Below, piece by piece: positions 8,219 through 24,783 of a DNA stretch of 25,656 nucleotides. The translations under genes and the position numbers were made by a program. The stretch is taken from contig JAFGDV010000028.1 of the NCBI GenBank assembly GCA_016931955.1, positions 1-25,656 of the forward strand, in the 5' to 3' direction. Numbering within the stretch: the stretch's first letter is position 1; every line of letters begins with the position of its first letter. Origin of the DNA: Candidatus Altiarchaeota archaeon (GTDB taxonomy: Archaea; Altiarchaeota; Altiarchaeia; IMC4; QMZM01). The notes below the pieces were generated by a model. That model had not been told where the DNA came from and did not search any database. It was given only the letters and a program-made list of their open reading frames with translations.

Positions 8219-9216
8219 AGAGAAATCACCTGCTTTTTTTCCGTCGACTCAATCAGTTTTTGCGCTAAAACCAATGCCTTTAGGCCGTCTTCCCCAGATA
8301 CAAGGGGTTCTTTGCCGTTCCCGACCGCATCGACCCAGGATTCCAGCTCAGCCTTTAGAGGCTCTTTCTTCTGGATCCTGATCTGCATTATGTTCCCCTC
8401 AGCCACGCCCATGAGTATGTCGGAGTAACTGTATTTTCCGTTTATGGCTTCAACGTTCTCGTAGAAGTACAGTTCTTGGGTCAGATACTTCACGACGAAC
8501 ATGCCCTTCTCCCCGATAATGGATATCTCCCTTATCTTTTCAGGGGTCAGCCAGTTAACCGATAAAACCCCTATGGTGTCGTTCTGGAACTTCAACAATC
8601 CAGAGAGTAGGTCCTCGTACTTTGTGTGGATCTTACGCTCTGTCTCGGCATAAAGCCTCTTCACATCGGAATTTGTCAGGTAACGCATGATGTCGATGTC
8701 GTGCACTGCAAGGTCTATGACAACACCAACATCCCTTATCCTACTAGGAAAAGGACCGACACGTATCGCCTTTATTTCGAATATCCTCCCCAATTCATCC
8801 CTGTCCAGCCTCCTTTTTAATTCTATGACAGCCGGGTTAAAGCGCTCAATATGCCCCACCGTGACCTTCACTTTGTTTTTCTCTGCGCTATCTATTATGG
8901 CTCTCGCATTATCCTCAGAATCAGCTATCGGCTTTTCGACCAGTGAGGGAATACCCCTCCTGGTGCACTCCAAAGCCACCTCACGATGATACTTTGTTGG
9001 AACAGCTATTGACAAAAGATCTATGTCCTCTTTATCTAACATCTCCTTGTAGTCTTTGTATGGATTACACCTTAGGGATTCTGCAACGTCCTTCGCGCTA
9101 TTGAAGGCCGCATCCGATACCGCTACGAGGTCAGTACTATCCAATTCAGCATAGATCCTAGCATGGTTTCTCCCCATGGAACCGACTCCGATAACCGCCG
9201 CTTTAAGCTTCCCCAT
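8215..9216 (-). CDS. wbpB: Gfo/Idh/MocA oxidoreductase, UDP-GlcNAcA 3-dehydrogenase (WbpB-like)
   Basis: GVGSMGRNHAR, VEKPIA, VGHIERFNPA, DLAVHDID. Confidence 0.82.
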   Translation of the reverse strand: MGKLKAAVIGVGSMGRNHARIYAELDSTDLVAVSDAAFNSAKDVAESLRCNPYKDYKEMLDKEDIDLLSIAVPTKYHREVALECTRRGIPSLVEKPIADSEDNARAIIDSAEKNKVKVTVGHIERFNPAVIELKRRLDRDELGRIFEIKAIRVGPFPSRIRDVGVVIDLAVHDIDIMRYLTNSDVKRLYAETERKIHTKYEDLLSGLLKFQNDTIGVLSVNWLTPEKIREISIIGEKGMFVVKYLTQELYFYENVEAINGKYSYSDILMGVAEGNIMQIRIQKKEPLKAELESWVDAVGNGKEPLVSGEDGLKALVLAQKLIESTEKKQVISL

Positions 9217-9217
9217 C

Positions 9218-10288
9218 TTAGACCTCGTTTAGGACAGATGCGATATAATCCAGGTTTTCCCTGGTTACTGAGGGGTGTATAGGCAAGGAAATGACTTTTC
9301 TTGCGAGCTCCTCTGAAACTGGTAGGCTTATCCTGTAGCCCAGATCCAAGTAGAGCCCTTGCTTGTGTATCGGAATGGGATAATAGATCCCAGTTCCTAT
9401 ACCCTTCTGGTTCAGTGTATTCACAATAGCGTCTCTGTCGCCTTCAACGCGTATAGTGTACTGGTGGAAGACATGCGTGCAATTTTTCCGAACAACTGGA
9501 GGCTTCACCTTCTTGTTTTCGATCAACTCTGTGAGGTATGCCGCATTCTCAGCCCTCTTCCTGTTGAATCCTGGAAGCTTCTTCAGCTGACACAAGCCGA
9601 TCGCTGCAGAGATGTCCGTCATCCTTAGGTTGAAGCCAATGATCTCATGGACGTAGCGCTGTTTTGAACCATGGGAGCGGATCATCCTCGCTTTTTCGGC
9701 AATTTTTTCATCATCTGTTGTAATAATTCCGCCCTCAGAGGTCGTCATGTTCTTGGTCGGATAGAAGGAGAAACAGCCTGTACCGAAAGAGCCGACCTTT
9801 TTTTTGTTGAATTCGGCGCCGTGGGCCTGACAAGCGTCTTCTATTACCACAAGGCTATGATCTTCAGCGATCTCCATTATGGCCTTCATGTCCGCTGGAT
9901 GACCATACAAGTGCACTGGCATGATCGCCTTCGTTTTTTCGGTTACCATCTCGGCCACGTCTACTGGATCAATGCAGAATGTGTCCTCTTCTATGGCTGC
10001 GAAAACGGGCCTTGCGCCGGTGAAGAGAACAGAGTTCGCAGACGCGATGAAAGTAAAAGAGGGAACGATCACTTCGTCGCCGGGGCCTATTCCGTGGGCG
10101 AGCAAGGCGACGTGCAACGCAGCAGTCCCAGAATTGACTGCTACCGCATGCTTAGTTCCTGTAAATCCAGAGAATTTGGTTTCAAACTCCTTGACCTTAG
10201 GACCTTCCGCAATAATACCGGAACCTAGGACTTCCATAACTGCCTGCTTTTCCTCTTCCCCTATCAATGGTTTAGCTATGGGGATCAT
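9218..10288 (-). CDS. wbpE: DegT/DnrJ PLP aminotransferase (WbpE-like 3-aminotransferase)
   Basis: NSGTAALH, FTFIASAN, EDACQAHGA, SFYPTKN (PLP lysine), GIYYPIP. Confidence 0.85.
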   Translation of the reverse strand: MIPIAKPLIGEEEKQAVMEVLGSGIIAEGPKVKEFETKFSGFTGTKHAVAVNSGTAALHVALLAHGIGPGDEVIVPSFTFIASANSVLFTGARPVFAAIEEDTFCIDPVDVAEMVTEKTKAIMPVHLYGHPADMKAIMEIAEDHSLVVIEDACQAHGAEFNKKKVGSFGTGCFSFYPTKNMTTSEGGIITTDDEKIAEKARMIRSHGSKQRYVHEIIGFNLRMTDISAAIGLCQLKKLPGFNRKRAENAAYLTELIENKKVKPPVVRKNCTHVFHQYTIRVEGDRDAIVNTLNQKGIGTGIYYPIPIHKQGLYLDLGYRISLPVSEELARKVISLPIHPSVTRENLDYIASVLNEV

Positions 10289-10875
10289 TTTTTATCGAGT
10301 TCTTCATGGACTTCTGGGGGTATTGTGACCTTCTTTCTGCAGACTGAACACTTCAATACAACACCCTGGGGGGTCACTTTTTCCTCCTCAAGCCTTCTCC
10401 CGCACTCGCAGACGAAGCCTCTGAGCTTTGCCGGGTTCCCGTACACGAGGGCATGGTCTGGGACGTCTCCTGTGACTACTGAACCGGAGCCTATCATCGC
10501 GTATCTGCCTATGGTGGTGCCGCATATGATCGTTGAGTTCGCGCCTATGGATGCGCCTTTCTTCACCAGGGTCTGGTATACTTTGAAATCCGAATTCGCA
10601 GCTCTGGGATACATGTCATTTGTGAATGTCATCGATGGACCCAGGAAGACGTCGTCCTCCACAACAACGCCGTGATAGACCGATACGAAGTTCTGTATCT
10701 TGACCCTGTCTCCTATTTTGACGTCGACGTCTATGTAGGATGATTTCCCTATGATGCAGTTTTTGCCTATCTTTGAGTTCTCCCGGACCTGTGCGAAGTG
10801 CCAGATCCTTGTTCCTTCACCGATCACCGCTTTTTCGGAGACTTCCGCTGTGGGGTGGATAAAAACGTTTTCCAT
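10285..10875 (-). CDS. wbpD: Hexapeptide-repeat N-acetyltransferase (WbpD/WlbB-like) with a C-terminal Cys cluster
   Basis: IHPTAEV, IWHF, KIQN, GPSMTFTND..PR, GASIGANSTI, GNPAK, CECG...CSVC. Confidence 0.87.
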   Translation of the reverse strand: MENVFIHPTAEVSEKAVIGEGTRIWHFAQVRENSKIGKNCIIGKSSYIDVDVKIGDRVKIQNFVSVYHGVVVEDDVFLGPSMTFTNDMYPRAANSDFKVYQTLVKKGASIGANSTIICGTTIGRYAMIGSGSVVTGDVPDHALVYGNPAKLRGFVCECGRRLEEEKVTPQGVVLKCSVCRKKVTIPPEVHEELDKK

Positions 10876-11007: not shown

Positions 11008-12210
11008 ATGAGGATATTGCAGACGGCAAGGTGGTTCTTCCCCCACGTCGGAGGAGCAAGCGTAAGAGTCTACCAGACAGCGAAAAATCTCGTAGATAAA
11101 GGCCACGAAGTCCACCTATTGGTACACAACCCAAAGTCGATAGAGCAATGCAATCTATCACAAGAAGTGCCAAACTATGAAGAATATGATGGAATACATG
11201 TCTACAGGATGCCATATTTTGCGCCAAAACAGGTCTACTGGGCTGCAACGATCCCCTTAATGGCAAAAAAAGCAATCAACATCATCAAGAAAGAAAAAAT
11301 CGACGTCATTCTCTCACATAATCCGCCCTACCTAGTCGGTATGTCCTCCTGGATAGCCAGCAAGTTTACTGGAGTGCCATTAACCCTTAATGTCCATGAT
11401 GTTTGGGGAGCTCCGCATTACAAAAAATACGAGTACATGATCGGTAAATCCCTCGAAAGATTCTGCTGTAACAGAGCCAAACGGATCATAACAGTGTCCG
11501 AGGGCTTATCCGAGGTCCTGGCAAATGAGACGGGTGTGGATAGGGATAAAGTAACGGCAGCACCGAATGGTGTCGACATTGAAAGATTTAGGATAGAAAG
11601 AGAAGAGACTGACAAACTGAAGGAGAAATACGACCTCTCAGGTAAAAAGGTTGTTTTTTTCGTGGGAATACTCCGAACATGGGCAGGCATACAGTTTCTG
11701 ATAAAGGCATTCCCGAAGGTTCTCGAAAAACAGCCAGAAAGTGTGCTCTTTATTGTAGGCGACGGGGGAGACAGGAAATACCTTGAAAGTTTAGTTGATG
11801 AATTAGAGATCCGAGAGAATACAGTCTTCACTGGATCTGTTCCCTACAGCGATGTTCCATCTTTCATCGATCTGGCGGATGTGTGCGTCGCCCCTTTTCC
11901 CTCGACAAAGGTGACTGACAGCAGAAAACTCATGTCACCCCATAAAGTCCTTGAATACATGGCTGCAGAGAAAGCCGTCATTGCAAGCAGGGTGGGGGGA
12001 ATGGAAAACTATGTCGAAGAAGGGGAAACCGGTTTTTTAGTTGAACCTGAGGATATCAGCGATCTAGCAAATAAGATAATAGCTCTATTGGAAGATCCGA
12101 ACATGAGAGAAAGATTCGGGAGAAAGGGCAGAGAGCATGTGGCAGAGAAACATGCTTGGACTAATTATGTAGGGATTGTGGAAAAAACCCTGGAGGATGT
12201 ATTAACATGA
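11008..12210 (+). CDS. GT4 family glycosyltransferase
   Basis: FFPHVGGA, PNGVD, FVG, IVGDG, FTGSVP, KVLEYMAAEKAVIASRVGG, GETGFLV. Confidence 0.93.
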   Translation: MRILQTARWFFPHVGGASVRVYQTAKNLVDKGHEVHLLVHNPKSIEQCNLSQEVPNYEEYDGIHVYRMPYFAPKQVYWAATIPLMAKKAINIIKKEKIDVILSHNPPYLVGMSSWIASKFTGVPLTLNVHDVWGAPHYKKYEYMIGKSLERFCCNRAKRIITVSEGLSEVLANETGVDRDKVTAAPNGVDIERFRIEREETDKLKEKYDLSGKKVVFFVGILRTWAGIQFLIKAFPKVLEKQPESVLFIVGDGGDRKYLESLVDELEIRENTVFTGSVPYSDVPSFIDLADVCVAPFPSTKVTDSRKLMSPHKVLEYMAAEKAVIASRVGGMENYVEEGETGFLVEPEDISDLANKIIALLEDPNMRERFGRKGREHVAEKHAWTNYVGIVEKTLEDVLT

Positions 12211-13298
12211 AACTCTCCATAGTGGTCGGGACGCGGCCGCAGCTGATAAAGATAAGCCCGCTCATAAGGAGGATAGAAAAAGAGAGAGACATAAGACTGC
12301 AGTTCATCGATACTGGACAACACTACGACTATGAGCTGAACAAGACCTTCTACGATGAATTACGTCTGCCTGCATCAGAATTCTTAGACATCGGTTCAGG
12401 AACTCCTGGAGAGCAGACCGGTAATGCATTGATTGCAGTTGAAAGAGAGATTATAAAATTCAATCCAGATCTCGCACTAGTTATTGGGGATACTAATTCA
12501 GCCCTTGCAGGAGCCCTTGCTGCGGTAAAACAGAAGATCCCTGTAGGGCATATTGAAGCCGGTCTGAGGAGCTTTGACAGGAGGATGCCTGAGGAGATTA
12601 ATAGGATCATAGTCGACCACGTCTCAGATCATCTTTTCGCGCCCACAAAAAACGCAGTTAACAACCTAATGCGGGAGGGGATACCAAAGGATAAAATCTT
12701 CTTCACCCACGACATTACTGTAGACGCATGCCTGGAAAACTACGAGATTGCGAAAGAAAAATCCAAGATATTAGAGAAACTGAACATTAACCCAAGGGAC
12801 TATGTCTTAGTGACCGCCCACAGACAGGAGAACGTCGATGATAAAAGGAATCTGGAGAAATTGGTCAATGCATTAACGAAGCTCGAAAAGCCAACAATAT
12901 TCCCAGTGCATCCGAGGACACTGAAGAACATGAAGGCATTCAGCCTCTTGGAGAAGCTGGGAAAGAACTGCACATTAACCAAGCCTCTGGGCTACTTCGA
13001 CTTCTTGATGTTGCTTAAGAATGCGGCATGCGTTGTCACGGACTCTGGGGGCGTACAGAAGGAGGCTCTTATCCTGAAGACACCATGTGTTACCATTAGA
13101 ACAACAACGGAGTGGCCAGAAACGATAAAACTTAATGCAAATGTTCTTGTTGGCCTTGACGGGAAAAGGATTATCAATGAGGTCAATAGGAGATCTAATA
13201 ATGAATTCCACAGAGCTATGGAGGACATAAAGAGCCCATATGGTGAAGGAAAAACAAGTGAGAGTATATTAGATGCTATATTAGGACTCCAACAGTGA
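12207..13298 (+). CDS. wecB: Non-hydrolysing UDP-GlcNAc(-type) 2-epimerase (WecB/WbpI)
   Basis: VGTRPQLIK, TGQHYD, GDTNS, HIEAGLRS, MPEEINR, HRQENVD, TDSGGVQKEA. Confidence 0.92.
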   Translation: MKLSIVVGTRPQLIKISPLIRRIEKERDIRLQFIDTGQHYDYELNKTFYDELRLPASEFLDIGSGTPGEQTGNALIAVEREIIKFNPDLALVIGDTNSALAGALAAVKQKIPVGHIEAGLRSFDRRMPEEINRIIVDHVSDHLFAPTKNAVNNLMREGIPKDKIFFTHDITVDACLENYEIAKEKSKILEKLNINPRDYVLVTAHRQENVDDKRNLEKLVNALTKLEKPTIFPVHPRTLKNMKAFSLLEKLGKNCTLTKPLGYFDFLMLLKNAACVVTDSGGVQKEALILKTPCVTIRTTTEWPETIKLNANVLVGLDGKRIINEVNRRSNNEFHRAMEDIKSPYGEGKTSESILDAILGLQQ

Positions 13299-13301
13299 AA
13301 A

Positions 13302-15128
13302 ATGTGCGGTATATGCGGTTTCGTTGGTCTGGAAGACAAAGGCCTACTGAGTCGAATGAACGGCGTTATCCAACACAGGGGCCCTAATGAATCCGGCATC
13401 TACATGGACAAAAACATCGGATTAGGACATCAACGCCTGAGCATAATAGACCTCAGAACGGGTAAACAACCAGTGCATAACGAAGACCAGAGCATATGGA
13501 TAAGCTATAACGGAGAAACATACAACTTTCTGGACCTGCGGGTAGAGTTAGAAGAGAAGGGACATAAGTTTTATACAAATACAGATACAGAAGTCCTGAT
13601 ACATCTCTACGAAGAGGAGGGCGACCTGTTCGTGAAAAAACTCAATGGAATGTTTGCCTTCGCTCTGTGGGATTCAAACCAGAAAAAACTGCTGCTTGCA
13701 AGAGACAAAATCGGGATAAAGCCACTGTATTACACAATATCAGAGGATGGAAGCTTTCTTTTCGCGTCTGAGATCAAGTCTATCCTACAATACGAGAACT
13801 TGGAGAGAGCCGTCGACTTAGAAGCCTTAAACCTTACCATAAACCTCATGTACATTCCCGGAGAAAGAACCATGTTCCGGGGGATAAAAAAACTGCTGCC
13901 TGGGTTCATTTTGACATATAAAGACGGCAAAACAAACCTGCATAGATACTGGAACCTGAACATCAACCCAATAAAAGATTCTGAATCATACTACGCGAGA
14001 GAACTTAGAAGACTGCTAGAGGACGCTGTAAAAAGTCACATGATCAGTGACGTTCCTATCGGTTCTTTTCTTTCCGGCGGCTTGGATACTTCAACGATGG
14101 TTGCTTTGATGAGCAAATTCAGTGAAGAACCGGTTAAGACATTCTGCATGGGCTTTGGGGAAGATACAGACGAGCTCTCTGACGCCCGTTTGGTTGCAGA
14201 GCATTTTGGGACCGAGCATTACGAATTCATAATAACCCCAAAAAAAGGCCTACAAATACTGGAAAAAGCAATATGGCACGTAGAGATGCCAAAGATAAAT
14301 CTCTTCCCATATTACGTGTCAGAACTTGCTGCAAAGAAGGCCAAAGTCTGCATATCCGGTTTAGGCGGGGATGAACTATTTGCGGGCTATTTGCGGAGAT
14401 ACAAGGCTGTTTTGTTGGCAGACAGAATCAGGAAACTTATCCCAGCAGTCGTTAAGGGAAACCTTTTCACAAAACTTGGATTCGTAGACCGGGGGGGTAG
14501 GTACAACTACTTCCTGGCACTCTCTAAACTGGATGATTGGGCTGATTTCTATCTTGTGTTATTTGGTGACGTACTCGATAAGAACGAACTTGATAGGCTC
14601 TATCTGATGGGAGCCAATAATGGCGACCTTAAGGCCGAATTCGCAACTTTCTTTAACAACGACCTACATCCAGTGGATAAAGTGCTCCTAGCAGATATAA
14701 AAACCCAGTTAGTTGATGACTACCTTGTCGTAGACGACGCAATGTCGATGGCGAATTCCCTCGAAATACGGGTGCCTTTCTTGGATGCAGAACTCATAGA
14801 CCTATCTTGTAAAATACCTTGGAATCTGAAGTATAGAAATGGTTTGGGGAAGTATATCCTCAGGAGAGCTATGTCAGATATATTGCCAAAGGAGATCTTC
14901 AGAAAGAAGAAGCGCGGCTTCGGCATGAGCTCTTACTCTTGGTTTAAGGATGAATTGAGAGAGTATTCACAACAGCTCCTTGAAAGCGAGGCAATAAATG
15001 ACTACTTCAAAAGAGATCGCCTAGAAAAAATCTTCAGGAACGCGGAAAATGAAAGCCATCGACACCACCAATTAATGTTGACACTACTATCCTTCAACAT
15101 CTGGTATAAAAGATTCATCGAGGATTAG
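13302..15128 (+). CDS. asnB: Asparagine synthase family amidotransferase, glycan-cluster type, copy 2
   Basis: MCGICG, HRGPN, RLSIID, YNGETYNF, SGGLDTS, GLGGDELFAGY, EIRVPFLD. Confidence 0.92.
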   Translation: MCGICGFVGLEDKGLLSRMNGVIQHRGPNESGIYMDKNIGLGHQRLSIIDLRTGKQPVHNEDQSIWISYNGETYNFLDLRVELEEKGHKFYTNTDTEVLIHLYEEEGDLFVKKLNGMFAFALWDSNQKKLLLARDKIGIKPLYYTISEDGSFLFASEIKSILQYENLERAVDLEALNLTINLMYIPGERTMFRGIKKLLPGFILTYKDGKTNLHRYWNLNINPIKDSESYYARELRRLLEDAVKSHMISDVPIGSFLSGGLDTSTMVALMSKFSEEPVKTFCMGFGEDTDELSDARLVAEHFGTEHYEFIITPKKGLQILEKAIWHVEMPKINLFPYYVSELAAKKAKVCISGLGGDELFAGYLRRYKAVLLADRIRKLIPAVVKGNLFTKLGFVDRGGRYNYFLALSKLDDWADFYLVLFGDVLDKNELDRLYLMGANNGDLKAEFATFFNNDLHPVDKVLLADIKTQLVDDYLVVDDAMSMANSLEIRVPFLDAELIDLSCKIPWNLKYRNGLGKYILRRAMSDILPKEIFRKKKRGFGMSSYSWFKDELREYSQQLLESEAINDYFKRDRLEKIFRNAENESHRHHQLMLTLLSFNIWYKRFIED

Positions 15129-15214: not shown

Positions 15215-16837
15215 ATGCCCAAGGAAACAGCTGGTGATGAATTTCTCAGAAGCGTAAAGAATTTCTCCCACACACCCATCGAAGACGGTAGAGACCTGAG
15301 GGATATCCTTGAATATGATGGTTTCTCTCTCTGGTGGTTCATAGAACCGTACCTTTATAATAGAGTGCTTGAGGTCATGAAGGGGGAATCAAACCTGCTT
15401 ATCAGCTACATCCGCTCCGGCAGCAAATACTGGATATTCGTAAAATTCGTCGTCCGATGCCTTCTTGGAAAAATTCTACGACCCCTTCACTTAAGAAGGC
15501 CGCCTTGTGTCCTTGTCATAAGTTCTGCCCTCAATTGGAGAAATAGCAATGATCCGCAATCAGGCAAGAAAAAGAAGGACATAATGTTAGGGGATGTCAT
15601 CGCTACACTAAAACAAATTGGTCATAGTGTAATAACCTTGGACCAGGTCACGACCAGTTCAGGTGATATGAAAAGCGTGATAGAAAAAAACTGCGAAGAT
15701 CTCGGAACATGGATACCTGCAGAAGCCTATCTATCACCAAGCATTTTTTTGAAGACCCTCAGGACTGCTCAGAGACTTAAGACCCTTTTATATGAGCTAA
15801 AGAAGAATAGGAAGTTTGTTGAAGCGCTAAGATCCAATGGGCGTTTGTTGTTCGAGGATATAGAAGAAGACCTGAATCTGTGTTTCAGATATCACCTCCC
15901 TAAAGACGCACTATATTTCGAGATGATGAAAAAGGCAGTGGACGTAGAAAAGCCGGACATTATAGTAGTAACCTGCGAATATGGTTCTCTTGGTCTGGCT
16001 GCCATAATGGCCGGAAGAACAAGGGGAATACCCACGCTAGCCCTGCAGCATGGAGTTATCCACCCAAAGCATTTCGCCTACGTGCATGCCGCTGACGAGG
16101 TCTCTGAGGATATATCACCACGATTCTACCCTCTCCCTGACAAGACAGCAGTCTATGGAACCTATGACAAACATGTCCTTACAGAAATCAACGCATACCC
16201 TGAAAGCAGCATAGTCGTCACTGGCCAGCCCAGATACGACATACTTGCACATGCCTCATCTACTTTCAGTAGAGAAACAACGATAAAAAAAATCGGTCTC
16301 AACCCAGACAAGAAACTCATGTTGTGGACGACGCAATCACATGGGTTGACAATAGAGGAAAACCGACGGTCATTTTTTGAGGTCTACCGGACAATAAATG
16401 AGCTGTCAGAAAGAGTGCAACTGGTGATAAAACTCCACCCAGGAGAGACAGACTACCGCATGCACAAGAGCATTGCGGATGAAGTCGGCATATCTCCGGT
16501 AATCACTAAAGACATCGACATCTACGAAATCATTCATGCCTGCGACCTGATGATAACAAAAGCCTCTACCACTGGACTGGAAGCCATCGCATTAAATAAG
16601 CCAGTCATAATCCTGAACTTTGGCGGCGAACCAGATATCTTCGACTACGTTAAGGAGGGTGTGGCTGCAGGAGTCTACAGAGAAAACGAGCTGAAGGCGA
16701 CAATCGAAAGACTGCTGGAAGATGACTCCAAGCTTGCAAAAAACAGGGGCGCATACATAGAGAAACACTTGTACAGGATAGACGGCAAAGCCACGGAGAG
16801 AGTAGTCGACCTCATACGCAAGATGATCAAATCTTAG
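15215..16837 (+). CDS. GT-B fold protein of the CDP-glycerol glycerophosphotransferase / capsule-biosynthesis superfamily; candidate nonulosonate transferase
   Basis: GIPTLALQHG, VTGQPRYD, VIKLHPGE, STTGLEAIALNKPVI, DGKATERV. Confidence 0.65.
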   Translation: MPKETAGDEFLRSVKNFSHTPIEDGRDLRDILEYDGFSLWWFIEPYLYNRVLEVMKGESNLLISYIRSGSKYWIFVKFVVRCLLGKILRPLHLRRPPCVLVISSALNWRNSNDPQSGKKKKDIMLGDVIATLKQIGHSVITLDQVTTSSGDMKSVIEKNCEDLGTWIPAEAYLSPSIFLKTLRTAQRLKTLLYELKKNRKFVEALRSNGRLLFEDIEEDLNLCFRYHLPKDALYFEMMKKAVDVEKPDIIVVTCEYGSLGLAAIMAGRTRGIPTLALQHGVIHPKHFAYVHAADEVSEDISPRFYPLPDKTAVYGTYDKHVLTEINAYPESSIVVTGQPRYDILAHASSTFSRETTIKKIGLNPDKKLMLWTTQSHGLTIEENRRSFFEVYRTINELSERVQLVIKLHPGETDYRMHKSIADEVGISPVITKDIDIYEIIHACDLMITKASTTGLEAIALNKPVIILNFGGEPDIFDYVKEGVAAGVYRENELKATIERLLEDDSKLAKNRGAYIEKHLYRIDGKATERVVDLIRKMIKS

Positions 16838-17588
16838 AGCCGTTGCCAAAGATATTGGCCACATACTCGACGTTCTTTATGTCCTCAGCAAGGCCGTTTC
16901 TACGTGGAGTCTCCAATGTCACACGAGGCCTGTCCATAGAAAGAAGACATTTTGCTATGTATTCTAAGTCAAAATTGCCGTCCCCAAGAGACTTGTGGTC
17001 GTCTACCTCCTTATTAGTGTCGCCGTCGCTCAGATGGAACATCGCCGGCTTAAGGTCAAGGAAGCTCCCGATAACCTCCATATAGGGTCTTCTCATGCTA
17101 ATGGATGCTTTATACGCGTGACCGAAATCCAAGCAGAATCCTATATTGAACCTATCAAGCAGGACAGCAAAATCATGGGGGTCATAGTACAGACAATCCC
17201 CACCGTGAATGCCTGCCTTCGGCATATTCTCGAGGATGACCCTGTCCAATTCTATGCTACTGAGTATGTCTTCGGCCGCCTCCCTGCTACCGTACTCCGC
17301 ATGCAGGATGACGTACGGAGAATGAAACCTTCTCGCAATCTGGAGGGAGACATCAATCATCTCAAGGTTGAAGTTCCTCTTGCTCGGATCGCCGATATTA
17401 ACCCCCAGATTCGAGTGCGGCGCATGTATTATGTAGTCACTCCTCGGAAGCTTCAAAACATCATCCACGTGTCCGGGCACAACCAGCAATTCAAAGTAGT
17501 CGACTATTTTCCTTACTTCTTCTGGAAGCTCATCTATCAGAGCCACATCATCCGACCTGAACTTCAGACCTAAACATATTTTTTTCAT
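16827..17588 (-). CDS. Xylose-isomerase-like / AP endonuclease family 2 TIM-barrel metalloprotein
   Basis: IHAP, VILH, ILENMP, CLDFGHA, FHLSD, DDHKSLGDG, TLET. Confidence 0.85.
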   Translation of the reverse strand: MKKICLGLKFRSDDVALIDELPEEVRKIVDYFELLVVPGHVDDVLKLPRSDYIIHAPHSNLGVNIGDPSKRNFNLEMIDVSLQIARRFHSPYVILHAEYGSREAAEDILSSIELDRVILENMPKAGIHGGDCLYYDPHDFAVLLDRFNIGFCLDFGHAYKASISMRRPYMEVIGSFLDLKPAMFHLSDGDTNKEVDDHKSLGDGNFDLEYIAKCLLSMDRPRVTLETPRRNGLAEDIKNVEYVANIFGNGSKI

Positions 17589-18076
17589 ATCTCATGCCTT
17601 CTTAGCACCATCAAGACGATTTGTGAGTCAGAACCGGCTTCCTTGAAGCTTGCATCATGGAAGGCATTAATCGATGCTTTGTTAAACTTCTTTATCCTCG
17701 CCCTCAGACAACGCAGAGATTCTCTCTCGTTGAAGAAACGCTCGCATGCCTTCCTCAGAGCAATCGACCCCAGACCTTTGCCCCTCCATGCAGGTGCTAT
17801 AGTCACGTTAATCTCCGCTTCGCTATCATCGTCCATTATATCAAAACGAACCTGGCCGACTCTCTCCTCACCGACCATGATCATCATTAAAACCCTTTTT
17901 TTGCTGACCAAAACGCCATCGAACCATCTACTATGCTCTTCAGCGCTTATCTTGTGACTGCTGAATGAATACTTTCGCGTTTCAGGGTCATTTCTCCACT
18001 CTAGTAGGATTTCACAGTCAGATTTCTGTGCAGGCCGCAGTGTTATCTCCTCTCCACTTATGACAGCATGCTCCAT
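17585..18076 (-). CDS. pseH: GNAT N-acetyltransferase, PseH-like
   Basis: LLEWRNDPETR..S, EEHSRWF, VGQVRFD, RGKGLG, NKASINAF. Confidence 0.8.
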   Translation of the reverse strand: MEHAVISGEEITLRPAQKSDCEILLEWRNDPETRKYSFSSHKISAEEHSRWFDGVLVSKKRVLMMIMVGEERVGQVRFDIMDDDSEAEINVTIAPAWRGKGLGSIALRKACERFFNERESLRCLRARIKKFNKASINAFHDASFKEAGSDSQIVLMVLRRHEI

Positions 18077-19113
18077 GTTATCCCCTCACCCGCCCTTATG
18101 TCGCGCTTAGCCTTCTTTCCCCAGATTTTCTCAATATGCTTCGGCTCAAGGCCGGGCCTGTTCTTGCCGCTTCGCAGGACTGCAACGTTCTTGGACAACA
18201 ATTGTTCGCCTCTTTTTATATCCTTTGTCGCATGGATCCTACGCTTAGCGAAATCGTATAGCTCTCTCTCGACATCTTCGACCTTTTTCCTGCCAGAACC
18301 AAGCGCTTCCTCGACCATACGGATCTTCTTTACCATGTCCGCAAGCTCGTGAGGCTCCAAGGAGAACCTATGATCCGGTCCTAAAAGGTCGTTGTCAAGT
18401 GTGAAGTGTTTCTCTAGGATGTTCGCACCAAGGGCTACTGCCGCAAGCGGTGCTACAAGAGGCTCCCTTGAATGGTCGGATAATCCCACTGGGATCCTGA
18501 ACTTCCGCTTCATCGACACTATGACACGTAGATTCATCGAACTTTGCGGGGCAGGATACTTTGCAGTGCACTGAGTAAGACAGACCTTCCTGTTGCCCGT
18601 AGAGTAAACAGCATCAAGCGACTCCACCACCTCGGAGAGGGTGCTCGCACCAGTTGATATTATCATCGGTTTATTTTTTCTGGCAACGTATTTCAGCAGA
18701 GGAATATGGCTTACCTCATAGGAGGCTATCTTATGTGCAAGAACATATTCATCCAGTCTATCCACTGATTCTTCATCGAAGACACTGACCAAAAAAAAGA
18801 CCCCTTTTTTCTCACAGTAGCCTGCAAGCTTTTCAATCCAGTTGTAAGGCATCTCAAGACCTTTTATTATCTCGCCTATCTGCTTCCTTGTGCCTAGATA
18901 GTCTGAGTTCCCCGCACCCTTGGAGTACAACTTCTCAGACCTGAACAGTTGGAACTTGACTGCGTCGGCTTTAGATTTGACTGCTACGTCTATAAGCTTC
19001 TTTGCCTGCGCCAAGCTGCCATCGTGATTAGACCCTGCTTCAGCGATGATAAAACACGGCTCGCCGTCGCCAATCAACCTATCTCCAATCCGTATCTTTC
19101 TCATATTATCCAT
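18058..19113 (-). CDS. Nonulosonic acid synthase (NeuB/PseI/SpsE family) with C-terminal SAF domain, copy 1
   Basis: IIAEAGSNHDG, DAVKFQ, KIASYE, CTAKYPA, GLSDHS, EKHFTL, GPDH. ATG at 19113 follows a GGAGGT SD; the ORF track starts at TTG 19125. Confidence 0.92.
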   Translation of the reverse strand: MDNMRKIRIGDRLIGDGEPCFIIAEAGSNHDGSLAQAKKLIDVAVKSKADAVKFQLFRSEKLYSKGAGNSDYLGTRKQIGEIIKGLEMPYNWIEKLAGYCEKKGVFFLVSVFDEESVDRLDEYVLAHKIASYEVSHIPLLKYVARKNKPMIISTGASTLSEVVESLDAVYSTGNRKVCLTQCTAKYPAPQSSMNLRVIVSMKRKFRIPVGLSDHSREPLVAPLAAVALGANILEKHFTLDNDLLGPDHRFSLEPHELADMVKKIRMVEEALGSGRKKVEDVERELYDFAKRRIHATKDIKRGEQLLSKNVAVLRSGKNRPGLEPKHIEKIWGKKAKRDIRAGEGITWSMLS

Positions 19114-19198
19114 TAAAACCTCCAAGTCCTTGCAGATGAGGATCCTTCAACCGCCAGATATGTCCAAGAACCCCTCTAGGATATACCCAAACAACCAT
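19106..19198 (-). pseudogene. 30-aa mini-ORF MVVWVYPRGVLGHIWRLKDPHLQGLGGFNG, possible remnant of pseG/spsG
   Basis: Translated by hand. It starts 1 nt after the cytidylyltransferase stop, ends inside the synthase start, and contains GHIxR after a hydrophobic strand. Confidence 0.3.
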
Positions 19199-19199
19199 C

Positions 19200-19883
19200 T
19201 TAGCTTTTCCCCCCAGTCCTTGCCAGCAGCCACTCAACGATCTCAAAATCCTCAAGCTCGTCGATGTCGATGGACTCATTCGACCCCATCACCAGGAAGC
19301 CGACTTTGCCACCAGTTAACTCGCCTTTTTCCATCAACAAATCCCTTGTGCAGACATACAAGGCTCCATTCTCCTTTAGGAGAGGCTTGGACAATTGGCG
19401 GTTATTTATGCTTTTAGGGTAGAAGCGAATGTATCTGCCGTTGCTCTCAGCCCAGTAATGCCCTCGGTCTGGAACGACGCTAACAACAGAATCGAAGCCG
19501 CCTGAGGTAAGGAGGCTCACACCTTCGGAGATCCGCGAAGACGAAAGTAGAGGAGAAGTCGCATACAAGAGGACGACAATATCAGGATTATAATCCTCTT
19601 TCTCCTCCAGATATCCCACCGCATGCTGAAGAACTGGCAACGTCGGAGTCTCGTCGCTGGCAAGAGCTGCGGGGCGGATGAAAGGCACTTCTGCACCATA
19701 CTTATTCGCGACCCCAACGATCTCTTCATCTTCCGTTGAGACGATGACCCTGTCAATCCCTTCCGCTGCAAGGGCTGATTCTATAGCGTACGCAATAAGG
19801 GGCTTATCCGATAGAAGCTTCAAGTTCTTCCGCGGGATTCCCTTGGAACCCCCACGCGCCGGAATTATTGCAATGACTTTCAT
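19200..19883 (-). CDS. Acylneuraminate cytidylyltransferase (NeuA/PseF, CMP-nonulosonate synthetase)
   Basis: IIPARGGSKGIPRKN, VSTED, PFIRPAALASD, TSPL, ENGALY, SIDID. ATG at 19883, alternative TTG at 19892. Confidence 0.93.
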   Translation of the reverse strand: MKVIAIIPARGGSKGIPRKNLKLLSDKPLIAYAIESALAAEGIDRVIVSTEDEEIVGVANKYGAEVPFIRPAALASDETPTLPVLQHAVGYLEEKEDYNPDIVVLLYATSPLLSSSRISEGVSLLTSGGFDSVVSVVPDRGHYWAESNGRYIRFYPKSINNRQLSKPLLKENGALYVCTRDLLMEKGELTGGKVGFLVMGSNESIDIDELEDFEIVEWLLARTGGKS

Positions 19884-19888
19884 CGGAT

Positions 19889-20533
19889 TCAACCTTTCTT
19901 CAGCAGATACATGACGTCTCTGTTATCGTTATTCGTGTATTTCATGACCTTCTTCTTGAGAAGCTTTGCATCTGGGAACCGATCAAGGAAAAGCTTTGGG
20001 AAGTCGGTCTTCCACAATAGATCATCCTTGCCGCGGTAGTTTATCATCTCATATCCCTTCTCCGAATAATACTCAAAACCCCCTATATATGAGGCTGCGC
20101 AGCGGTGAATCTCATCCAACGCCTTATTTATGTCGCTCGGAGAGATGTGTATCAGGACGCCTGCAGTGAAAACCATGTCGAAGAAGTCGTCTTTGAACGG
20201 CAGATCGAACGCTGACCCCAAGACTATGTTCAACCCACTAGTCCTCTTCCGAGCTACCTCAACCGCGTAGCTCTGAATCTCGACACCCCACAAATTGGAA
20301 TAACCCATGGTCTTGAGTAAGTCCAACTGATTCCCGACGTTGCACCCGACCTCGAGAATCCTGTCGTACTTCTCCAGAACACCATCAAGGAACTCTTTGT
20401 TCAGGGAAGTCCTTGAAATGCCATAGTTCCCTTCATAGAGGCTATCCAGTTCAGCCGGGGCCAAAAGATTCCTGTCCGTGTAATCTTTGCCGAATTCGCC
20501 CGACCATACCTCTTCCTGCTTCGTCTTAGCCAT
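19889..20533 (-). CDS. Pseudaminic acid biosynthesis-associated SAM methyltransferase
   Basis: TKQEEVWSGEFGKDYTDRN, ILEVGCNVG, FTAGVLIHI, EYY, YRG..D.LWK.DF; sits inside the pse operon. Confidence 0.85.
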   Translation of the reverse strand: MAKTKQEEVWSGEFGKDYTDRNLLAPAELDSLYEGNYGISRTSLNKEFLDGVLEKYDRILEVGCNVGNQLDLLKTMGYSNLWGVEIQSYAVEVARKRTSGLNIVLGSAFDLPFKDDFFDMVFTAGVLIHISPSDINKALDEIHRCAASYIGGFEYYSEKGYEMINYRGKDDLLWKTDFPKLFLDRFPDAKLLKKKVMKYTNNDNRDVMYLLKKG

Positions 20534-20539
20534 AAAACA

Positions 20540-21682
20540 TCACCCAATATAGTCTTTCGTTTTGCTGCAGATGTACTCAACGTTGTCGTCGCTCATCTTC
20601 GGATAAAGCGGCAACGTGACTATCCTCCTGAAGACATCCTCAGTCACTGGAAAATCCTTCGGCTTTACGCCAAGGCTTTTAGCGTAAAAACTGTGCCGGT
20701 AAACAGGTATGTAATGGACGTTAACTCCTATGTTTTCGTGACGCATATAATTGAAGAATTTATCCCTGTCAACTCTGAGGAGCACTGTGTATAGATGCCA
20801 CGCATGCTTTACGTCTTCCTCTGCGTGGGGCAACTCAACGAAACCAACGTCTCCAAGGAACTCGCCATAGAGTCCTGCTATATCCCTCCTGCGCTCAAGG
20901 AAGACATCAAGCTTCCTGAGCTGCGAGACACCGAGGGCGCACTGGAAGTCCGTGATCCGGTAATTCCTCCCAAGGAACTTCATATCGTAGACGTAACCCG
21001 CATCCTTCCCCTGCCTGCTGCTAGCATCCCGGTCTATGCCATGATTCCTCAATAACAACATGCGCTCATAAAGTTCACTGCTATCGGTCACAACAGCACC
21101 GCCTTCACCAGTAGTTATGTGCTTTACTGGATGGAATGAGAAGATAGAGAGGTCTGCGAAACACCCAAGACGTTTACCCCTGTATTCGGCACCTAGGGCA
21201 TGACATACATCCTCTATCAGGTAGAGTTCATGCTCTTCAGATATCTCCTGCAAGGCCTTGATATCACATGGGTGGCCTGCATAGTCTACATACAAAATCG
21301 CCTTCGTCTTCTCCGTTATCTTTTCCCTAACGCTCTCCGGATCGATGTTCCTCGTTTCTTTGTTTATGTCGGCAAAGACTGGCCTGCAGCCGTTGAAGAG
21401 TATCGCATTAGAGGAGGCAACAAAGGTAAACGGTGTTGTTATTATCTCAGAACCCTTAGGCAGTTCGAGGGATTGAACTGCAATATCCAAAGCAGCCGTC
21501 CCATTACAGACAGCGACCGAATGCTTACACCCAAGGTAGCTGCTGAGTTTTTCCTCGAACTCTCTCACCATAGGTCCACCAGTTAGCCACTCAGACCTGA
21601 GGGTAGATACAACTGCGGCAATGTCATCCTCCCCTATGTCATGGAGGCCGTATGGTATGAGTTCCTTTGCCACTCTATTCAA
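20540..21682 (-). CDS. pseC: UDP-4-amino-4,6-dideoxy-N-acetyl-altrosamine transaminase (PseC-like)
   Basis: IPYG, WLTGGP, NGTAAL, SFHPVKHITTGEGG, NYRITDFQCALG, GVNVHYIPV. Start is TTG 21682 or GTG 21673. Confidence 0.88.
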   Translation of the reverse strand: MNRVAKELIPYGLHDIGEDDIAAVVSTLRSEWLTGGPMVREFEEKLSSYLGCKHSVAVCNGTAALDIAVQSLELPKGSEIITTPFTFVASSNAILFNGCRPVFADINKETRNIDPESVREKITEKTKAILYVDYAGHPCDIKALQEISEEHELYLIEDVCHALGAEYRGKRLGCFADLSIFSFHPVKHITTGEGGAVVTDSSELYERMLLLRNHGIDRDASSRQGKDAGYVYDMKFLGRNYRITDFQCALGVSQLRKLDVFLERRRDIAGLYGEFLGDVGFVELPHAEEDVKHAWHLYTVLLRVDRDKFFNYMRHENIGVNVHYIPVYRHSFYAKSLGVKPKDFPVTEDVFRRIVTLPLYPKMSDDNVEYICSKTKDYIG

Positions 21683-22076
21683 ACCGGTAGATGAAGGTGT
21701 CTGATGGATCCTCTAAGCCATCGCTGAAAACGACGAGACTTGCACTTTTTTGCCTGCTTGGATTCTTCACAAGATGCGCCACCCCCGGGGGTATCAGGTA
21801 GACTGCATATTCGTCAGATTCCGAGTCCATGACAATCTTCTCCCTCATCCTGCAACCCACATCTTCTAACGTCAGCTCGATCCTGCCGCTTGCCAAGCAA
21901 AGCCACTCCTTCTTCTTTCTATGGAAATGACCGGCCCTACTATGCTCCGGCTCGATATTCACGAGATAGCTGTGGATAAAATCATGAGGCTCATCAGCGT
22001 AAGCTTTTGATACAAGCTCCACCAGCCAGCCGTCTTCCCTCACATGCTTCTCTCGGATCAGTTTCTCGCCCAGCAT
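21675..22076 (-). CDS. Stand-alone cupin (WxcM/CapF C-terminal-like sugar epimerase/isomerase)
   Basis: DGWLVEL, RAGHFHRKKKEW, IPPGVAH, DPSDT. ATG at 22076, alternative TTG at 22082. Confidence 0.8.
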   Translation of the reverse strand: MLGEKLIREKHVREDGWLVELVSKAYADEPHDFIHSYLVNIEPEHSRAGHFHRKKKEWLCLASGRIELTLEDVGCRMREKIVMDSESDEYAVYLIPPGVAHLVKNPSRQKSASLVVFSDGLEDPSDTFIYRFE

Positions 22077-22078
22077 TT

Positions 22079-23062
22079 TCAATCCTGAGCCTTTTCAGCC
22101 ATCTTTTTCAGCTCCACGCCAGTAAGCCACTGATCGTTAGCGTCGCTAGCGTACCTGAACCCTTCAGGCAGGCGCTTACCGGACGTCATATGCTCGTCGC
22201 TCCAGAAAGGATGCTCTGGATCTATGACAAAATAATCATCGAACTCCCTCGAGTGCCTCGACTCATCCTCTGTGAGAAGGATCTCGTGAAGCTTTTCTCC
22301 AGGGCGGATGCCTATCACCCTCCTTTTCGCCTTAGGCGCAATAGCGTCCGCAAGATCAGTTATCCTCATACTCGGTATTTTTGGGATGAATACCTCACCA
22401 CCCTTCATCCTCCCAATGCAGGACATGACGAACTCAACACCCTGCTCAAGGGTGATCCAGAACCGCGTCATCCGCTCATCGGTCAAAGTGATCTCTCCCT
22501 TCTCCCTCTGCTTCAAGAAAAGAGGGATAACGCTGCCTCGGCTACCGACGACATTGCCGTAGCGGACGCAGGAAAGCTTCGTCTTCTTCCCCCCAGAAGC
22601 GTAAGAATTGCCTTGGACGAACAATTTTTCGGCCACCATCTTGGTCGACCCATACAGGTTGACGGGGTGCACTGCTTTGTCTGTGCTGATAGCAAGAACC
22701 CTGTCGACGGCGTTATCAATAGCAGCGTCTATGACGTTGACTGAACCTTCGATGTTAGTCCTCACGGCTTCGATGGGGTTGTACTCACACGCAGGCACCT
22801 GCTTTAAGGCAGCCGCATGCACTACGATGTCTACGTTGTTCATCGCCCGAGAAAGCCTCACCCTGTCCCGGACATCGCCGATCAGGAAACGAAGCCGAGG
22901 ATCATCGAACTTGTTTTCCATCTCATACTGCATCAACTCGCCGCGGGAATATATGCGAACACTATCAGGCTTATGCTTCCTCAACAAGATTTCAGTGAAT
23001 TTCTGACCGAAAGACCCCGTACCCCCAGTAACCAATATCGTTTTTTCGTCAAAAATCGACAT
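22079..23062 (-). CDS. pseB: UDP-N-acetylglucosamine 4,6-dehydratase (inverting), PseB
   Basis: TGGTGSFG, HAAALKQVPACEYNP, STDKA, NLYGSTK, RYGNVVGSRGSV, MTRFWITL, GIRPGEKLHE. Confidence 0.93.
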   Translation of the reverse strand: MSIFDEKTILVTGGTGSFGQKFTEILLRKHKPDSVRIYSRGELMQYEMENKFDDPRLRFLIGDVRDRVRLSRAMNNVDIVVHAAALKQVPACEYNPIEAVRTNIEGSVNVIDAAIDNAVDRVLAISTDKAVHPVNLYGSTKMVAEKLFVQGNSYASGGKKTKLSCVRYGNVVGSRGSVIPLFLKQREKGEITLTDERMTRFWITLEQGVEFVMSCIGRMKGGEVFIPKIPSMRITDLADAIAPKAKRRVIGIRPGEKLHEILLTEDESRHSREFDDYFVIDPEHPFWSDEHMTSGKRLPEGFRYASDANDQWLTGVELKKMAEKAQD

Positions 23063-23242: not shown

Positions 23243-24292
23243 ATGATAAGGCTGCGAACAAGAAACCTGACGCGAGATTCTCCGCCCTTTGTAATCGCTG
23301 AGATAGGCAACAACCACCAAGGAAGCCTGAAGAACGCCATAGAGCTTGTGAAGACCGCCAAGTTCTGCGGGGCCGACGCGGTCAAGTTCCAGAAGAGAAC
23401 TAACATTAAGCTTTACACAAAACACCTATACAATCAATTGTATGACAATCCAGACAGTTTCGGGGAAACATACGGAAAACATCGCGAGGCCTTGGAACTT
23501 TCACTGGATGAATTCATCGAACTAAAGAAGTATACAGAAGACCTAGGTCTCGAGTTCATGTGCACTGCCTTTGATTTTGATGCCGTCGATTTCCTTGAGG
23601 GCATAGGATTACACAGCTACAAGATAGCCTCAGGCGACCTGACTTCTCTACCATTAATCGAATACGTCGCCAAGCTGGGCAAACCCATATTCATTTCAAC
23701 GGGCGCCGCAACCTTGGAGGAGGTACACACCGCCTATAAGACGGTCCTGGAATACCACGACCAGATCTGCATAATGCAATGCACTGCTTCCTATCCCGCA
23801 GACTATGAGATCCTTAACCTCAACGTCATAAAAACATATCTCGAAGAATTCCCGGAGGCCATAATAGGGTACTCAGGACATGACACCGGCGTTTTAGCCA
23901 CCTCAATCGCTAGGATGCTCGGCGCCACGGTCTTCGAGAAACACTTTACCATGAACAGGGCTTGGAAGGGGACAGACCACAAGTTCAGCCTAGAGCCCCG
24001 TGGCCTGCAGGTAGTAGTAAGGGATCTGAAGAGAATCAGCCAAATACTTGGATCGCACGAAAAACAGACACTTGACGTGGAGAAAAACGCCAAGATCAAG
24101 ATGGGTAAAAGCATATATTATTCAAGAGACCTTAAGGCGGGAACGGTGCTCTCAGAAAGAGACATAAACATCAAATGCCCATTCAAGGAAGTGCCTGCTT
24201 CTGATTTCAAAAGATTCATAGGCAAGAAAATCCTGGTCGACGTTGAAGAAGACGATGCTCTGGAGTACTCTCACTTCAAAGGTTTATCATGA
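23243..24292 (+). CDS. Nonulosonic acid synthase, copy 2 (NeuB family; probably Neu5Ac-9-P/KDN-9-P synthase type)
   Basis: VIAEIGNNHQG, AVKFQKR, SFGETYGKHRE, KIASGD, CTASYP, GYSGHD, EKHFT, KGTDH, SAF-like tail; coupled to a HAD phosphatase. Confidence 0.9.
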   Translation: MIRLRTRNLTRDSPPFVIAEIGNNHQGSLKNAIELVKTAKFCGADAVKFQKRTNIKLYTKHLYNQLYDNPDSFGETYGKHREALELSLDEFIELKKYTEDLGLEFMCTAFDFDAVDFLEGIGLHSYKIASGDLTSLPLIEYVAKLGKPIFISTGAATLEEVHTAYKTVLEYHDQICIMQCTASYPADYEILNLNVIKTYLEEFPEAIIGYSGHDTGVLATSIARMLGATVFEKHFTMNRAWKGTDHKFSLEPRGLQVVVRDLKRISQILGSHEKQTLDVEKNAKIKMGKSIYYSRDLKAGTVLSERDINIKCPFKEVPASDFKRFIGKKILVDVEEDDALEYSHFKGLS

Positions 24293-24783
24293 AAGCAGAT
24301 TACCGAAAGATAAAGCTTTTTGCCATGGACTTCGACGGCGTATTGACAGACAACTTTGTCTACGTCAGCGACGAAGGAAGAGAATTCGTGAGATGCACTC
24401 GCGCAGACGGCATAGGGTTGCAGAAACTCAGAAGCCATGGGATCGAACTGCTTGTTCTCTCAACAGAAGAAAACTCTGTTGTATCCAAGAGATGTGAGAA
24501 ACTCAACCTAAAATATTTTCACGGAGTCAAAAACAAGGCCGACTTCTTGAGAGAATACATAGAGAAAAAAGGCATTAGACCAGAGAATGTGGCCTTTGTT
24601 GGAAACGACGAAAACGATCTGGATGTCCTGAAGATCGTTGGATTCCCATTCGTTGCGGGTGACTCTCATCCCAACGTGAAGAACGTAGCAAAATATGTGA
24701 CAAAAAAATCAGGCGGAACGGGCGCTGTAAGGGAAATATGCGATTTGATAGATGACTCCTTTGGGGGTGGGGTTGATGAGTAA
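24289..24783 (+). CDS. HAD phosphatase, KdsC / KDN-9-phosphate phosphatase family
   Basis: DFDGVLTD, DGIG, LST, K, FVGNDEND, GGTGAVREICD. Confidence 0.9.
   Translation: MKADYRKIKLFAMDFDGVLTDNFVYVSDEGREFVRCTRADGIGLQKLRSHGIELLVLSTEENSVVSKRCEKLNLKYFHGVKNKADFLREYIEKKGIRPENVAFVGNDENDLDVLKIVGFPFVAGDSHPNVKNVAKYVTKKSGGTGAVREICDLIDDSFGGGVDE

Follow-up and report, generated by a model that had tools for sequence, protein, structure and literature searches.

An Endonuclease IV-like TIM Barrel as a Probable Replacement for PseG in Pseudaminic Acid Gene Clusters of Archaea and Bacteria

A 253-residue TIM-barrel protein, encoded by the last gene of a pseudaminic acid (Pse) operon from a Candidatus Altiarchaeota archaeon, is probably a non-orthologous replacement for the UDP-sugar hydrolase PseG. 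From sequence comparisons and genome context, we put the probability of this assignment at roughly 60%. The window, that is, the whole stretch of DNA analyzed here, is 25,656 nucleotides long and corresponds to an entire contig (C45; JAFGDV010000028.1 of assembly GCA_016931955.1) of a 1.55 Mb genome that is distributed over 46 contigs and is 92.4% complete. The operon is tightly packed on the minus strand in the order pseB-cupin-pseC-methylase-pseF-neuB/pseI-GNAT-TIM barrel.

An earlier reading of the window from its sequence only had described an operon with PseB, PseC, a PseH-like GNAT N-acetyltransferase, a synthase, and a CMP-synthetase but no PseG, and had proposed that an endonuclease IV-like metalloenzyme, the barrel, takes the place of PseG. 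The gene content was borne out by profile scans and by a six-frame search of the genome, as was an overlap of 4 nucleotides (positions 17585-17588) between the start of the barrel gene and the stop of the GNAT gene. The replacement itself is supported by gene context, domain fusions, and phyletic distribution. A restriction of the family to archaea was not supported, and the fold and ligand order do not by themselves prove the chemistry. The synthesis of pseudaminic acid is considered to require PseG, which serves as a marker in the prediction of Pse pathways, for example as K15897 (PMC11337218).

PseG Searches and Genomic Context of the Barrel Gene

The whole genome was searched in six frames with the PseG model TIGR03590 (cut-off 153.55 bits). 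No PseG above the cut-off was found in this 92.4%-complete genome, the best scores being 22 bits in the six-frame translation (22.1) and 35 bits for a whole open reading frame (ORF). Because the genome is 92% complete, these searches make the absence of PseG likely, not proven. No hydrolysing NeuC above its cut-off was found in the genome either, and the two Epimerase_2 genes are of the WecB type. The barrel ORF gave no match to TIGR03590.

The same pattern was found in other genomes that carry the barrel. Among 22 such genomes, whose loci are described below, PseG above the cut-off was found in none, and the best match reached 31.6 bits. In 61 genomes of the same phylum, orthologues of the barrel (at least 190 bits) were found in six and PseG above the cut-off in none; matches of 42-67 bits in 16 other genomes were counted as paralogues, akin to a second AP_endonuc_2 protein on contig 20 of the window genome. 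A near-miss to PseG (146.8 bits) occurs in one genome of the phylum (G064), in which neither the barrel nor a PseB-like protein (E ≤ 1e-30) was found. Of the six genomes with an orthologue, four duplicate genomes already sampled (G001, G002, G003, and G006; identical contig coordinates) and were removed from the total given below.

For the Desulfobulbales, 201 genomes were surveyed. Five contain the barrel, 50 a PseG match at E ≤ 1e-25 (43 above the cut-off), and 65 a strict PseB. The 65 strict-PseB genomes contain PseG in 45 cases, the barrel in 5, both in 0, and neither in 15. The hypergeometric probability that none of the 5 barrel genomes among these has PseG is 0.0019, although P values of this kind overstate the significance because related genomes are not independent. 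Of 251 genomes of the Methanosarcinales order, 15 carry the barrel, 7 carry a PseG-like protein (2 above the cut-off), and none carries both. The 13 strict-PseB genomes of that order have the barrel in 8, PseG in 0, and neither in 5, and a loose PseB set of 42 genomes has the barrel in 13, PseG in 3, both in 0, and neither in 26. Altogether, PseG was found in none of approximately 41 distinct barrel-carrying genomes, a count that excludes the recognized duplicates and may conceal further ones, and the barrel was found in none of approximately 58 genomes with PseG or near-PseG. The thresholds vary slightly between the searches.

The 22 loci were collected by a pattern scan, one genome per species, using a single peptide pattern derived from an alignment of 8 sequences, which biases the set toward relatives that keep the CLDxGHAxK motif. 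Gene types were assigned by BLAST of the window proteins against all locus ORFs, and GNAT proteins were assigned by profile search. The archaeal loci are from four Altiarchaeales, two Methanoperedens, one Bathyarchaeia, one Methanosarcinales, Pacearchaeota, and Nanoarchaeota. The bacterial loci are from four members of the Patescibacteria group, three Desulfobulbaceae/Desulfocapsa, a gammaproteobacterium, Vulcanimicrobiota, Delongbacteria, and two unclassified organisms. The family is thus not confined to archaea, since its bacterial members come from Desulfobulbales, Patescibacteria, a gammaproteobacterium, and further bacteria.

The co-occurrence with pseB/C/H/I/F that the sequence-only reading had proposed as a check was observed. 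A NeuB/PseI-type gene is present at 17 of the 22 loci, in archaea and bacteria, together with a PseC-like gene at 13, a PseB-like gene at 12, and a PseH-like GNAT at 11. These pse-type neighbors are nearly always upstream of the barrel gene and on the same strand. Five loci have no synthase: the barrel is at a contig edge in three (L008, L011, and L025), PseC adjoins the barrel in L023, and the fifth is L024, which is considered below. When the whole genomes were searched, 10 of 22 had PseB above the cut-off and 16 of 22 had a PseB-like protein at E ≤ 1e-80. In the two order samples, a strict PseB gene lies less than 9 kb from the barrel gene in 3 of 5 Desulfobulbales genomes and in 8 of 8 genomes of the Methanosarcinales order.

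Domain fusions were counted among the 150 best representatives of the family, 28 of which are at least 330 residues long. The barrel is fused to a domain homologous to the window GNAT in 26 of the 150, with the GNAT at the N-terminus in 6 and at the C-terminus in 20. The GNAT domain of one of these proteins (P0006) scores 81 bits on the PseH model. One representative of the 150 (P0071) joins the barrel to a CTP_transf_3 (PseF-like) cytidylyltransferase. Canonical PseG is also fused to a PseH-like GNAT, at L037 (514 residues, Desulfobulbales) and L041 (524 residues, Methanosarcinales order), and many PseG frames of the Desulfobulbales sample are approximately 510-600 residues long, a statement of length only, with domains unchecked. 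A PseF-PseG fusion is presumably present in Helicobacter pylori. As read from these sequences, the GNAT partner and the gene neighborhood that the barrel has in common with the unrelated PseG are a classic signature of non-orthologous displacement. A different partner, a Pol-beta-type nucleotidyltransferase domain rather than GNAT, is found in P0094 (394 residues).

A WbuX-type N-acetyl-sugar amidotransferase lies inside two of the barrel-type pse operons (L006:7306-8430 and L019:4993-6144). This 374-residue ORF was considered as an alternative PseG and rejected on account of its WbuX-type identity. Its position inside the operons suggests that these two organisms make an acetamidino-modified Pse.

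Family, Metal Ligands, and Fold

Judged by its homologues, the barrel gene is genuine and not a chance ORF, because its relatives in a library-wide HMMER search number 617 representatives at E ≤ 1e-3 (429 at E ≤ 1e-10). The protein is a member of the AP_endonuc_2 superfamily (PF01261; 59.3 bits over residues 53-236 versus a gathering score of 31.1). A specific model for its clade was not found in NCBIfam or Pfam. The nfo models were not reached (NF002198, 25.1 versus 244 bits; NF002196, 16.7 versus 333; NF002199, 15.3 versus 315), and no NCBIfam epimerase or isomerase family matches the barrel at E ≤ 0.01. The public names of its relatives are “endonuclease IV”, “deoxyribonuclease-4”, “sugar phosphate isomerase/epimerase”, and “hypothetical”, with approximately 15 of 120 listed rows named, and the ESM Atlas gave only generic clusters of “xylose isomerase-like TIM barrel”. 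No account of this family in Pse synthesis was found in the open-access literature; subscription journals were outside the coverage.

The translation contains the motifs IIHAP (H55), VILHA (H96), ILEN (E120), LDFGH (D154 and H157), FHLSD (H185), VDDH (D196 and H198), and LETP (E226). The ligands named in the sequence-only reading, and their endonuclease IV-like order, are therefore all present. When 70 relatives without fusions were aligned, E33, H55, H96, E120, N121, D154, H185, and H198 proved invariant, and K9, C152, H157, D196, and E226 are retained in at least 90%. All nine endonuclease IV-type ligand positions (H55, H96, E120, D154, H157, H185, D196, H198, and E226) are thus present and conserved. 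When the family profile was aligned with solved endonucleases IV, identical residues were found at all nine positions in 3aam and 5zhz. The first eight positions are identical in 8edd and 8axy, for which the printed alignment stops before the last glutamate. The aligned motifs common to the barrel family and the endonucleases IV are HAP, HPG, EN/ET, CLD..H, H.ND, D.H, and ET. In endonuclease IV, these ligands are established to bind three metals (Hosfield et al. 1999, as cited in PMC7733943).

The AlphaFold (AF2) model of the protein is a (β/α)8 barrel with a mean pLDDT of 96.0 and a pTM of 0.92. The top Foldseek match of this model is endonuclease IV from M. tuberculosis (5zhz; E = 1.7e-11). 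In VIA-align, the Z scores were 23.9 for MJ1311, 22.3 for the T. thermophilus endonuclease IV, 22.3 for TTHB071, and 22.1 for the M. tuberculosis endonuclease IV. Across endonucleases IV, MJ1311, ketose epimerases, and xylose isomerases, the Z scores range from 20 to 24. The structure search was therefore non-discriminating, and the conservation of the ligands was used as the basis of the assignment instead. A predicted complex of the barrel with the adjacent GNAT scored 0.01 against a mark of 0.32, with controls not run, and argues neither for nor against binding.

The closest solved structure by profile is MJ1311 (PDB 3wqo, “D-tagatose 3-epimerase-like protein”, function unknown; E = 1.2e-16), which superimposes on the model with a root-mean-square deviation of 2.4 over 228 residues and has His, Glu, and Asp positions as in the barrel. 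At approximately 64 bits, it stands at the level of a paralogue. The same level (57 bits to the barrel profile) is found for the second AP_endonuc_2 protein of the window genome, a 273-residue protein on contig 20 (C20:3616-4437; L054) that scores 64 bits on nfo, 56 on CbiR, and 53 on IolO, all below the cut-offs. It cannot be called a true nfo (64 bits versus a cut-off of 244).

Proposed Reaction and Competing Explanations

In the proposed pathway, PseB, PseC, and the PseH-like GNAT would build UDP-2,4-diacetamido-2,4,6-trideoxy-L-altrose, the putative substrate of the barrel. The pyrophosphate would be bound by the barrel across two or three metals, in the way that the scissile phosphate is bound in endonuclease IV. 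A metal-bound hydroxide would then attack the β-phosphate and the anomeric oxygen would leave, to give UDP and the free sugar with the C1-O bond intact. The freed hexose would be condensed with phosphoenolpyruvate by the NeuB/PseI-type synthase and activated with CMP by the PseF-like enzyme. An alternative cleavage to UMP and a sugar 1-phosphate would be chemically possible, yet no conserved phosphatase accompanies the barrel in the pse clusters.

PseG is a GT-B enzyme that breaks the C1-O bond. The barrel is placed at the same proposed step and in the same pseB/C/H/I/F neighborhood as PseG (TIGR03590, GT-B/GT28 fold), and the two proteins have no kinship of sequence or fold: PseG is a metal-independent GT-B enzyme, whereas the barrel has the TIM fold with a predicted metal site. 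The bond expected to be cleaved by the barrel is P-O rather than C1-O, and the anomeric outcome may therefore differ between the two enzymes. Endonuclease IV (Nfo) has the TIM-barrel fold and the ligand residues of the barrel. It acts on abasic sites in DNA repair, whereas the barrel is found in a sugar-biosynthesis context with a nucleotide sugar as its proposed substrate. A precedent is provided by CbiR, a cobamide-remodeling phosphodiesterase of the same superfamily that forms a clade of its own (PMC7733943); by this precedent, the superfamily is able to hydrolyze a small-molecule phosphodiester. The barrel is distinct from CbiR (NF041277; 23.2 bits versus a cut-off of 105), and its neighbors are pse genes, with no cobamide genes nearby.

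Several observations weigh against this assignment, in addition to the relatedness of the genomes mentioned above. The non-overlap of barrel and PseG in the Methanosarcinales order is not significant (P = 0.32), because PseG is rare there. Most of the surveyed genomes are incomplete metagenome-assembled genomes. One barrel gene (L024; contig 9 of G019) has full flanks with no pse gene within 10 kb and is a genuine exception; a strict PseB gene is found approximately 64 kb away on the same contig. The synthase, the cytidylyltransferase, and the GNAT of the window all fall below Pse-specific cut-offs (Table 1), so the profile scores leave room for a nonulosonic acid other than Pse. The barrel is far under every curated NCBIfam cut-off, with nfo and CbiR as the sole weak matches, and the diiron/triiron oxidase MbnB is among the weak matches in both the structure and profile searches. 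The structure prediction gave the expected TIM barrel with high confidence, but the ketose 3-epimerases (Z = 21.6-21.9) are nearly tied with the endonucleases IV (22.1-22.3). Taken by itself, then, the fold cannot tell an endonuclease IV from a sugar epimerase and leaves the chemistry undecided, and MJ1311, TTHB071, and the epimerases are examples of other reactions supported by this scaffold. Fold and ligand order are accordingly no proof of phosphoester hydrolysis on their own, and the closest solved relative, MJ1311, has no assigned function.

The remaining point concerns clusters that have neither protein. Five pse clusters of the Methanosarcinales order (L044-L048, from G353, G321, G369, G429, and G396) have no PseG and no barrel, and their PseB proteins are 71-73% identical to the window PseB. 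The gene order of this type is PseB-cupin-PseC-cytidylyltransferase-GNAT-SDR epimerase-ATP-grasp-HAD hydrolase-PseI-methyltransferase (e.g., L044:1880-10414); the common operon was judged from ORF order and size, with domains checked on L044 only. The HAD hydrolase of L044 is TIGR02253/pyrimidine-nucleotidase-like, and the HAD hydrolase of these clusters is a further candidate for the release of UDP. At least one more solution to UDP release, or a different pathway logic, therefore exists. The lack of PseG in a genome does not by itself assign its role to the barrel, since the neither class comprises 15 of 65 strict-PseB genomes of the Desulfobulbales and 5 of 13 of the Methanosarcinales order.

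The alternative that survives best makes the barrel an epimerase or isomerase of sugars, similar to ketose 3-epimerases or xylose isomerases. It would change the configuration of an intermediate of the pathway, or of the 6-deoxy-hexose once freed, and so yield a stereoisomer of Pse, with another enzyme removing UDP. Ketose 3-epimerases and xylose isomerases align with the barrel model at Z scores of 20-22 over approximately 230 residues, their four ligands (Glu, Asp, His, and Glu) all fall within the conserved set of the barrel, and some sources label its relatives as sugar phosphate isomerases or epimerases. We nevertheless consider this function unlikely. Five further ligands (H55, H96, H157, D196, and H198) are conserved and align with the endonucleases IV, the NCBIfam epimerase and isomerase families do not recognize the protein at E ≤ 0.01, the non-overlap of barrel and PseG would be unexplained, and the removal of UDP would be left without a candidate in the genome.

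It is improbable, in our estimation, that the barrel is a phosphoesterase that acts elsewhere in glycan assembly, on a lipid- or nucleotide-linked product, in the turnover of CMP-Pse, or on a phosphorylated intermediate, while a divergent GT-B enzyme carries out the PseG step. GT-B is the known fold for this step, and three proteins of the genome gave weak matches to PseG. The 540-residue GT-B protein convergent with the barrel gene (12.7 bits) and a contig-26 protein of the GT28/MJ1255-like type (22.1 bits; 35 bits as a whole ORF, N-terminus only) are the candidates for this role and are the best, very weak, matches in the genome. The third, a DUF354 protein on contig 23, was rejected, since it sits in a different glycan cluster beside FemAB-like and GT1 genes. 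The 540-residue protein has homologues at only 3 of the 22 barrel loci. In its C-terminal half it is similar to the BFO_1060/TIGR04396 family of surface-carbohydrate proteins, and BFO_1060 is one of the Pse/Leg-derivative transferases of Tannerella forsythia (PMC5420450). Given this similarity to the Tannerella nonulosonic acid transferases, we read the protein as a candidate pseudaminyl (nonulosonic acid) transferase rather than as the hydrolase, and as only a minor rival for the role of PseG. The contig-26 protein carries the sole GT28 C-terminal domain of the genome and was rejected as a hidden PseG because of its queuosine/archaeosine-type neighbors queC, queD, a radical-SAM queE-like gene, and folE2. 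In addition, PseG matches in the 22 other barrel genomes do not exceed 31.6 bits, and the GNAT fusions put the barrel beside the PseH step. The contig-26 locus is of separate interest, since a 374-residue GT28/MJ1255-family glycosyltransferase is an unusual partner for queC, queD (PTPS), queE-like, and folE2 genes (C26:49061-54319; L004:4062-9320) and might glycosylate a deazapurine.

It is very hard to credit that the barrel is simply an endonuclease IV for DNA repair that happens to end a glycan operon: the label “endonuclease IV” or “deoxyribonuclease-4” in several sources and the full set of nine ligand positions speak for this reading, but the protein scores 15-25 bits on nfo equivalog models with cut-offs of 244-333, is syntenic with pse genes in distant lineages, is recurrently fused to a PseH-like GNAT, and, at 253 residues, falls short of the length of most endonucleases IV with solved structures (258-307 residues).

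The replacement of PseG by the barrel can be stated more broadly. The widespread, unnamed clade of 429 representative clusters (E ≤ 1e-10), which occurs in both domains and frequently has PseH as a fusion partner, would be a second, independently evolved Pse UDP-sugar hydrolase that cleaves at phosphorus, not at the anomeric carbon, by means of a multinuclear metal site. Together with the SDR/ATP-grasp/HAD clusters, the release of UDP would then have been solved at least three times. We regard the chances of this wider proposal as evenly balanced.

Features of the Window and Implications

The coordinates of the operon and of the convergent gene are collected in Table 1. The barrel gene and the convergent ORF overlap by 11 nucleotides at their 3′ ends.

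Table 1. Genes of the pse operon and the convergent gene, with profile scores
Feature	Position	Strand	Assignment and score
540-residue GT-B protein, convergent	15215-16837	+	C-terminal half: NF046086 (BFO_1060) 89.8 bits, TIGR04396 89.1 bits, both below cut-off
TIM barrel, 253 residues	16827-17588	-	AP_endonuc_2/xylose-isomerase-like; candidate UDP-sugar hydrolase in place of PseG
PseH-like GNAT N-acetyltransferase	17585-18076	-	Acetyltransf_3 68 bits; TIGR03585 (PseH) 56.6 bits, below cut-off 93
NeuB/PseI-type synthase, NeuB and SAF domains	18058-19125	-	PF03102 270 bits; TIGR03569 (NeuB) 335 bits and TIGR03586 (PseI) 284 bits, both below cut-off
PseF-like CMP-nonulosonate cytidylyltransferase	19200-19892	-	TIGR03584 164 bits, below cut-off 206
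Pseudaminic acid biosynthesis-associated methylase	19889-20533	-	TIGR03587 184.6 bits, above cut-off 112
PseC aminotransferase	20540-21682	-	TIGR03588 438 bits, above cut-off 423.5
Small cupin, weakly WbuC-like, between pseB and pseC	21675-22082	-	
PseB, inverting UDP-GlcNAc 4,6-dehydratase	22079-23062	-	TIGR03589 499 bits, above cut-off 408

The position of the cupin between pseB and pseC is conserved in distant archaea, with 47-55% identity (L007:632-1027; L044:9016-9423). On the plus strand (23243-25597), a second NeuB-type synthase (349 residues) is followed by a HAD phosphatase similar to KdsC and KDN-9-phosphatase and by a weakly PtmA-like SDR protein at the contig end. This looks like a second, phosphate-dependent route to a nonulosonic or KDN-type acid alongside the pse operon. 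On the minus strand (6932-10875), genes for a UDP-ManNAc dehydrogenase-like nucleotide-sugar dehydrogenase, a UDP-GlcNAc 3-dehydrogenase, a DegT-type aminotransferase, and a hexapeptide acetyltransferase are as expected for the synthesis of a 2,3-diacetamido-2,3-dideoxy-uronic acid, and a WecB 2-epimerase is encoded at 12207-13298. The same glycan locus encodes two asparagine-synthase-type amidotransferases (1639-3525 and 13302-15128, +). The second, the only one of the two that was scanned, is closest to the XrtA/PEP-CTERM-associated type (492 bits, below the cut-off).

If the barrel does replace PseG, calls of an “incomplete Pse pathway” would be wrong in Altiarchaeota, Methanoperedens, DPANN, Patescibacteria, and Desulfobulbales, and a function could be given to hundreds of proteins now labeled as endonuclease IV or sugar phosphate isomerase. 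Hydrolysis of nucleotide sugars would join the reaction of CbiR among the activities of the AP_endonuc_2 superfamily, and an alternative catalyst would become available for the chemoenzymatic synthesis of Pse. The two enzymes would also constitute a clean example of non-orthologous gene displacement in which an identical domain-fusion partner has been kept.

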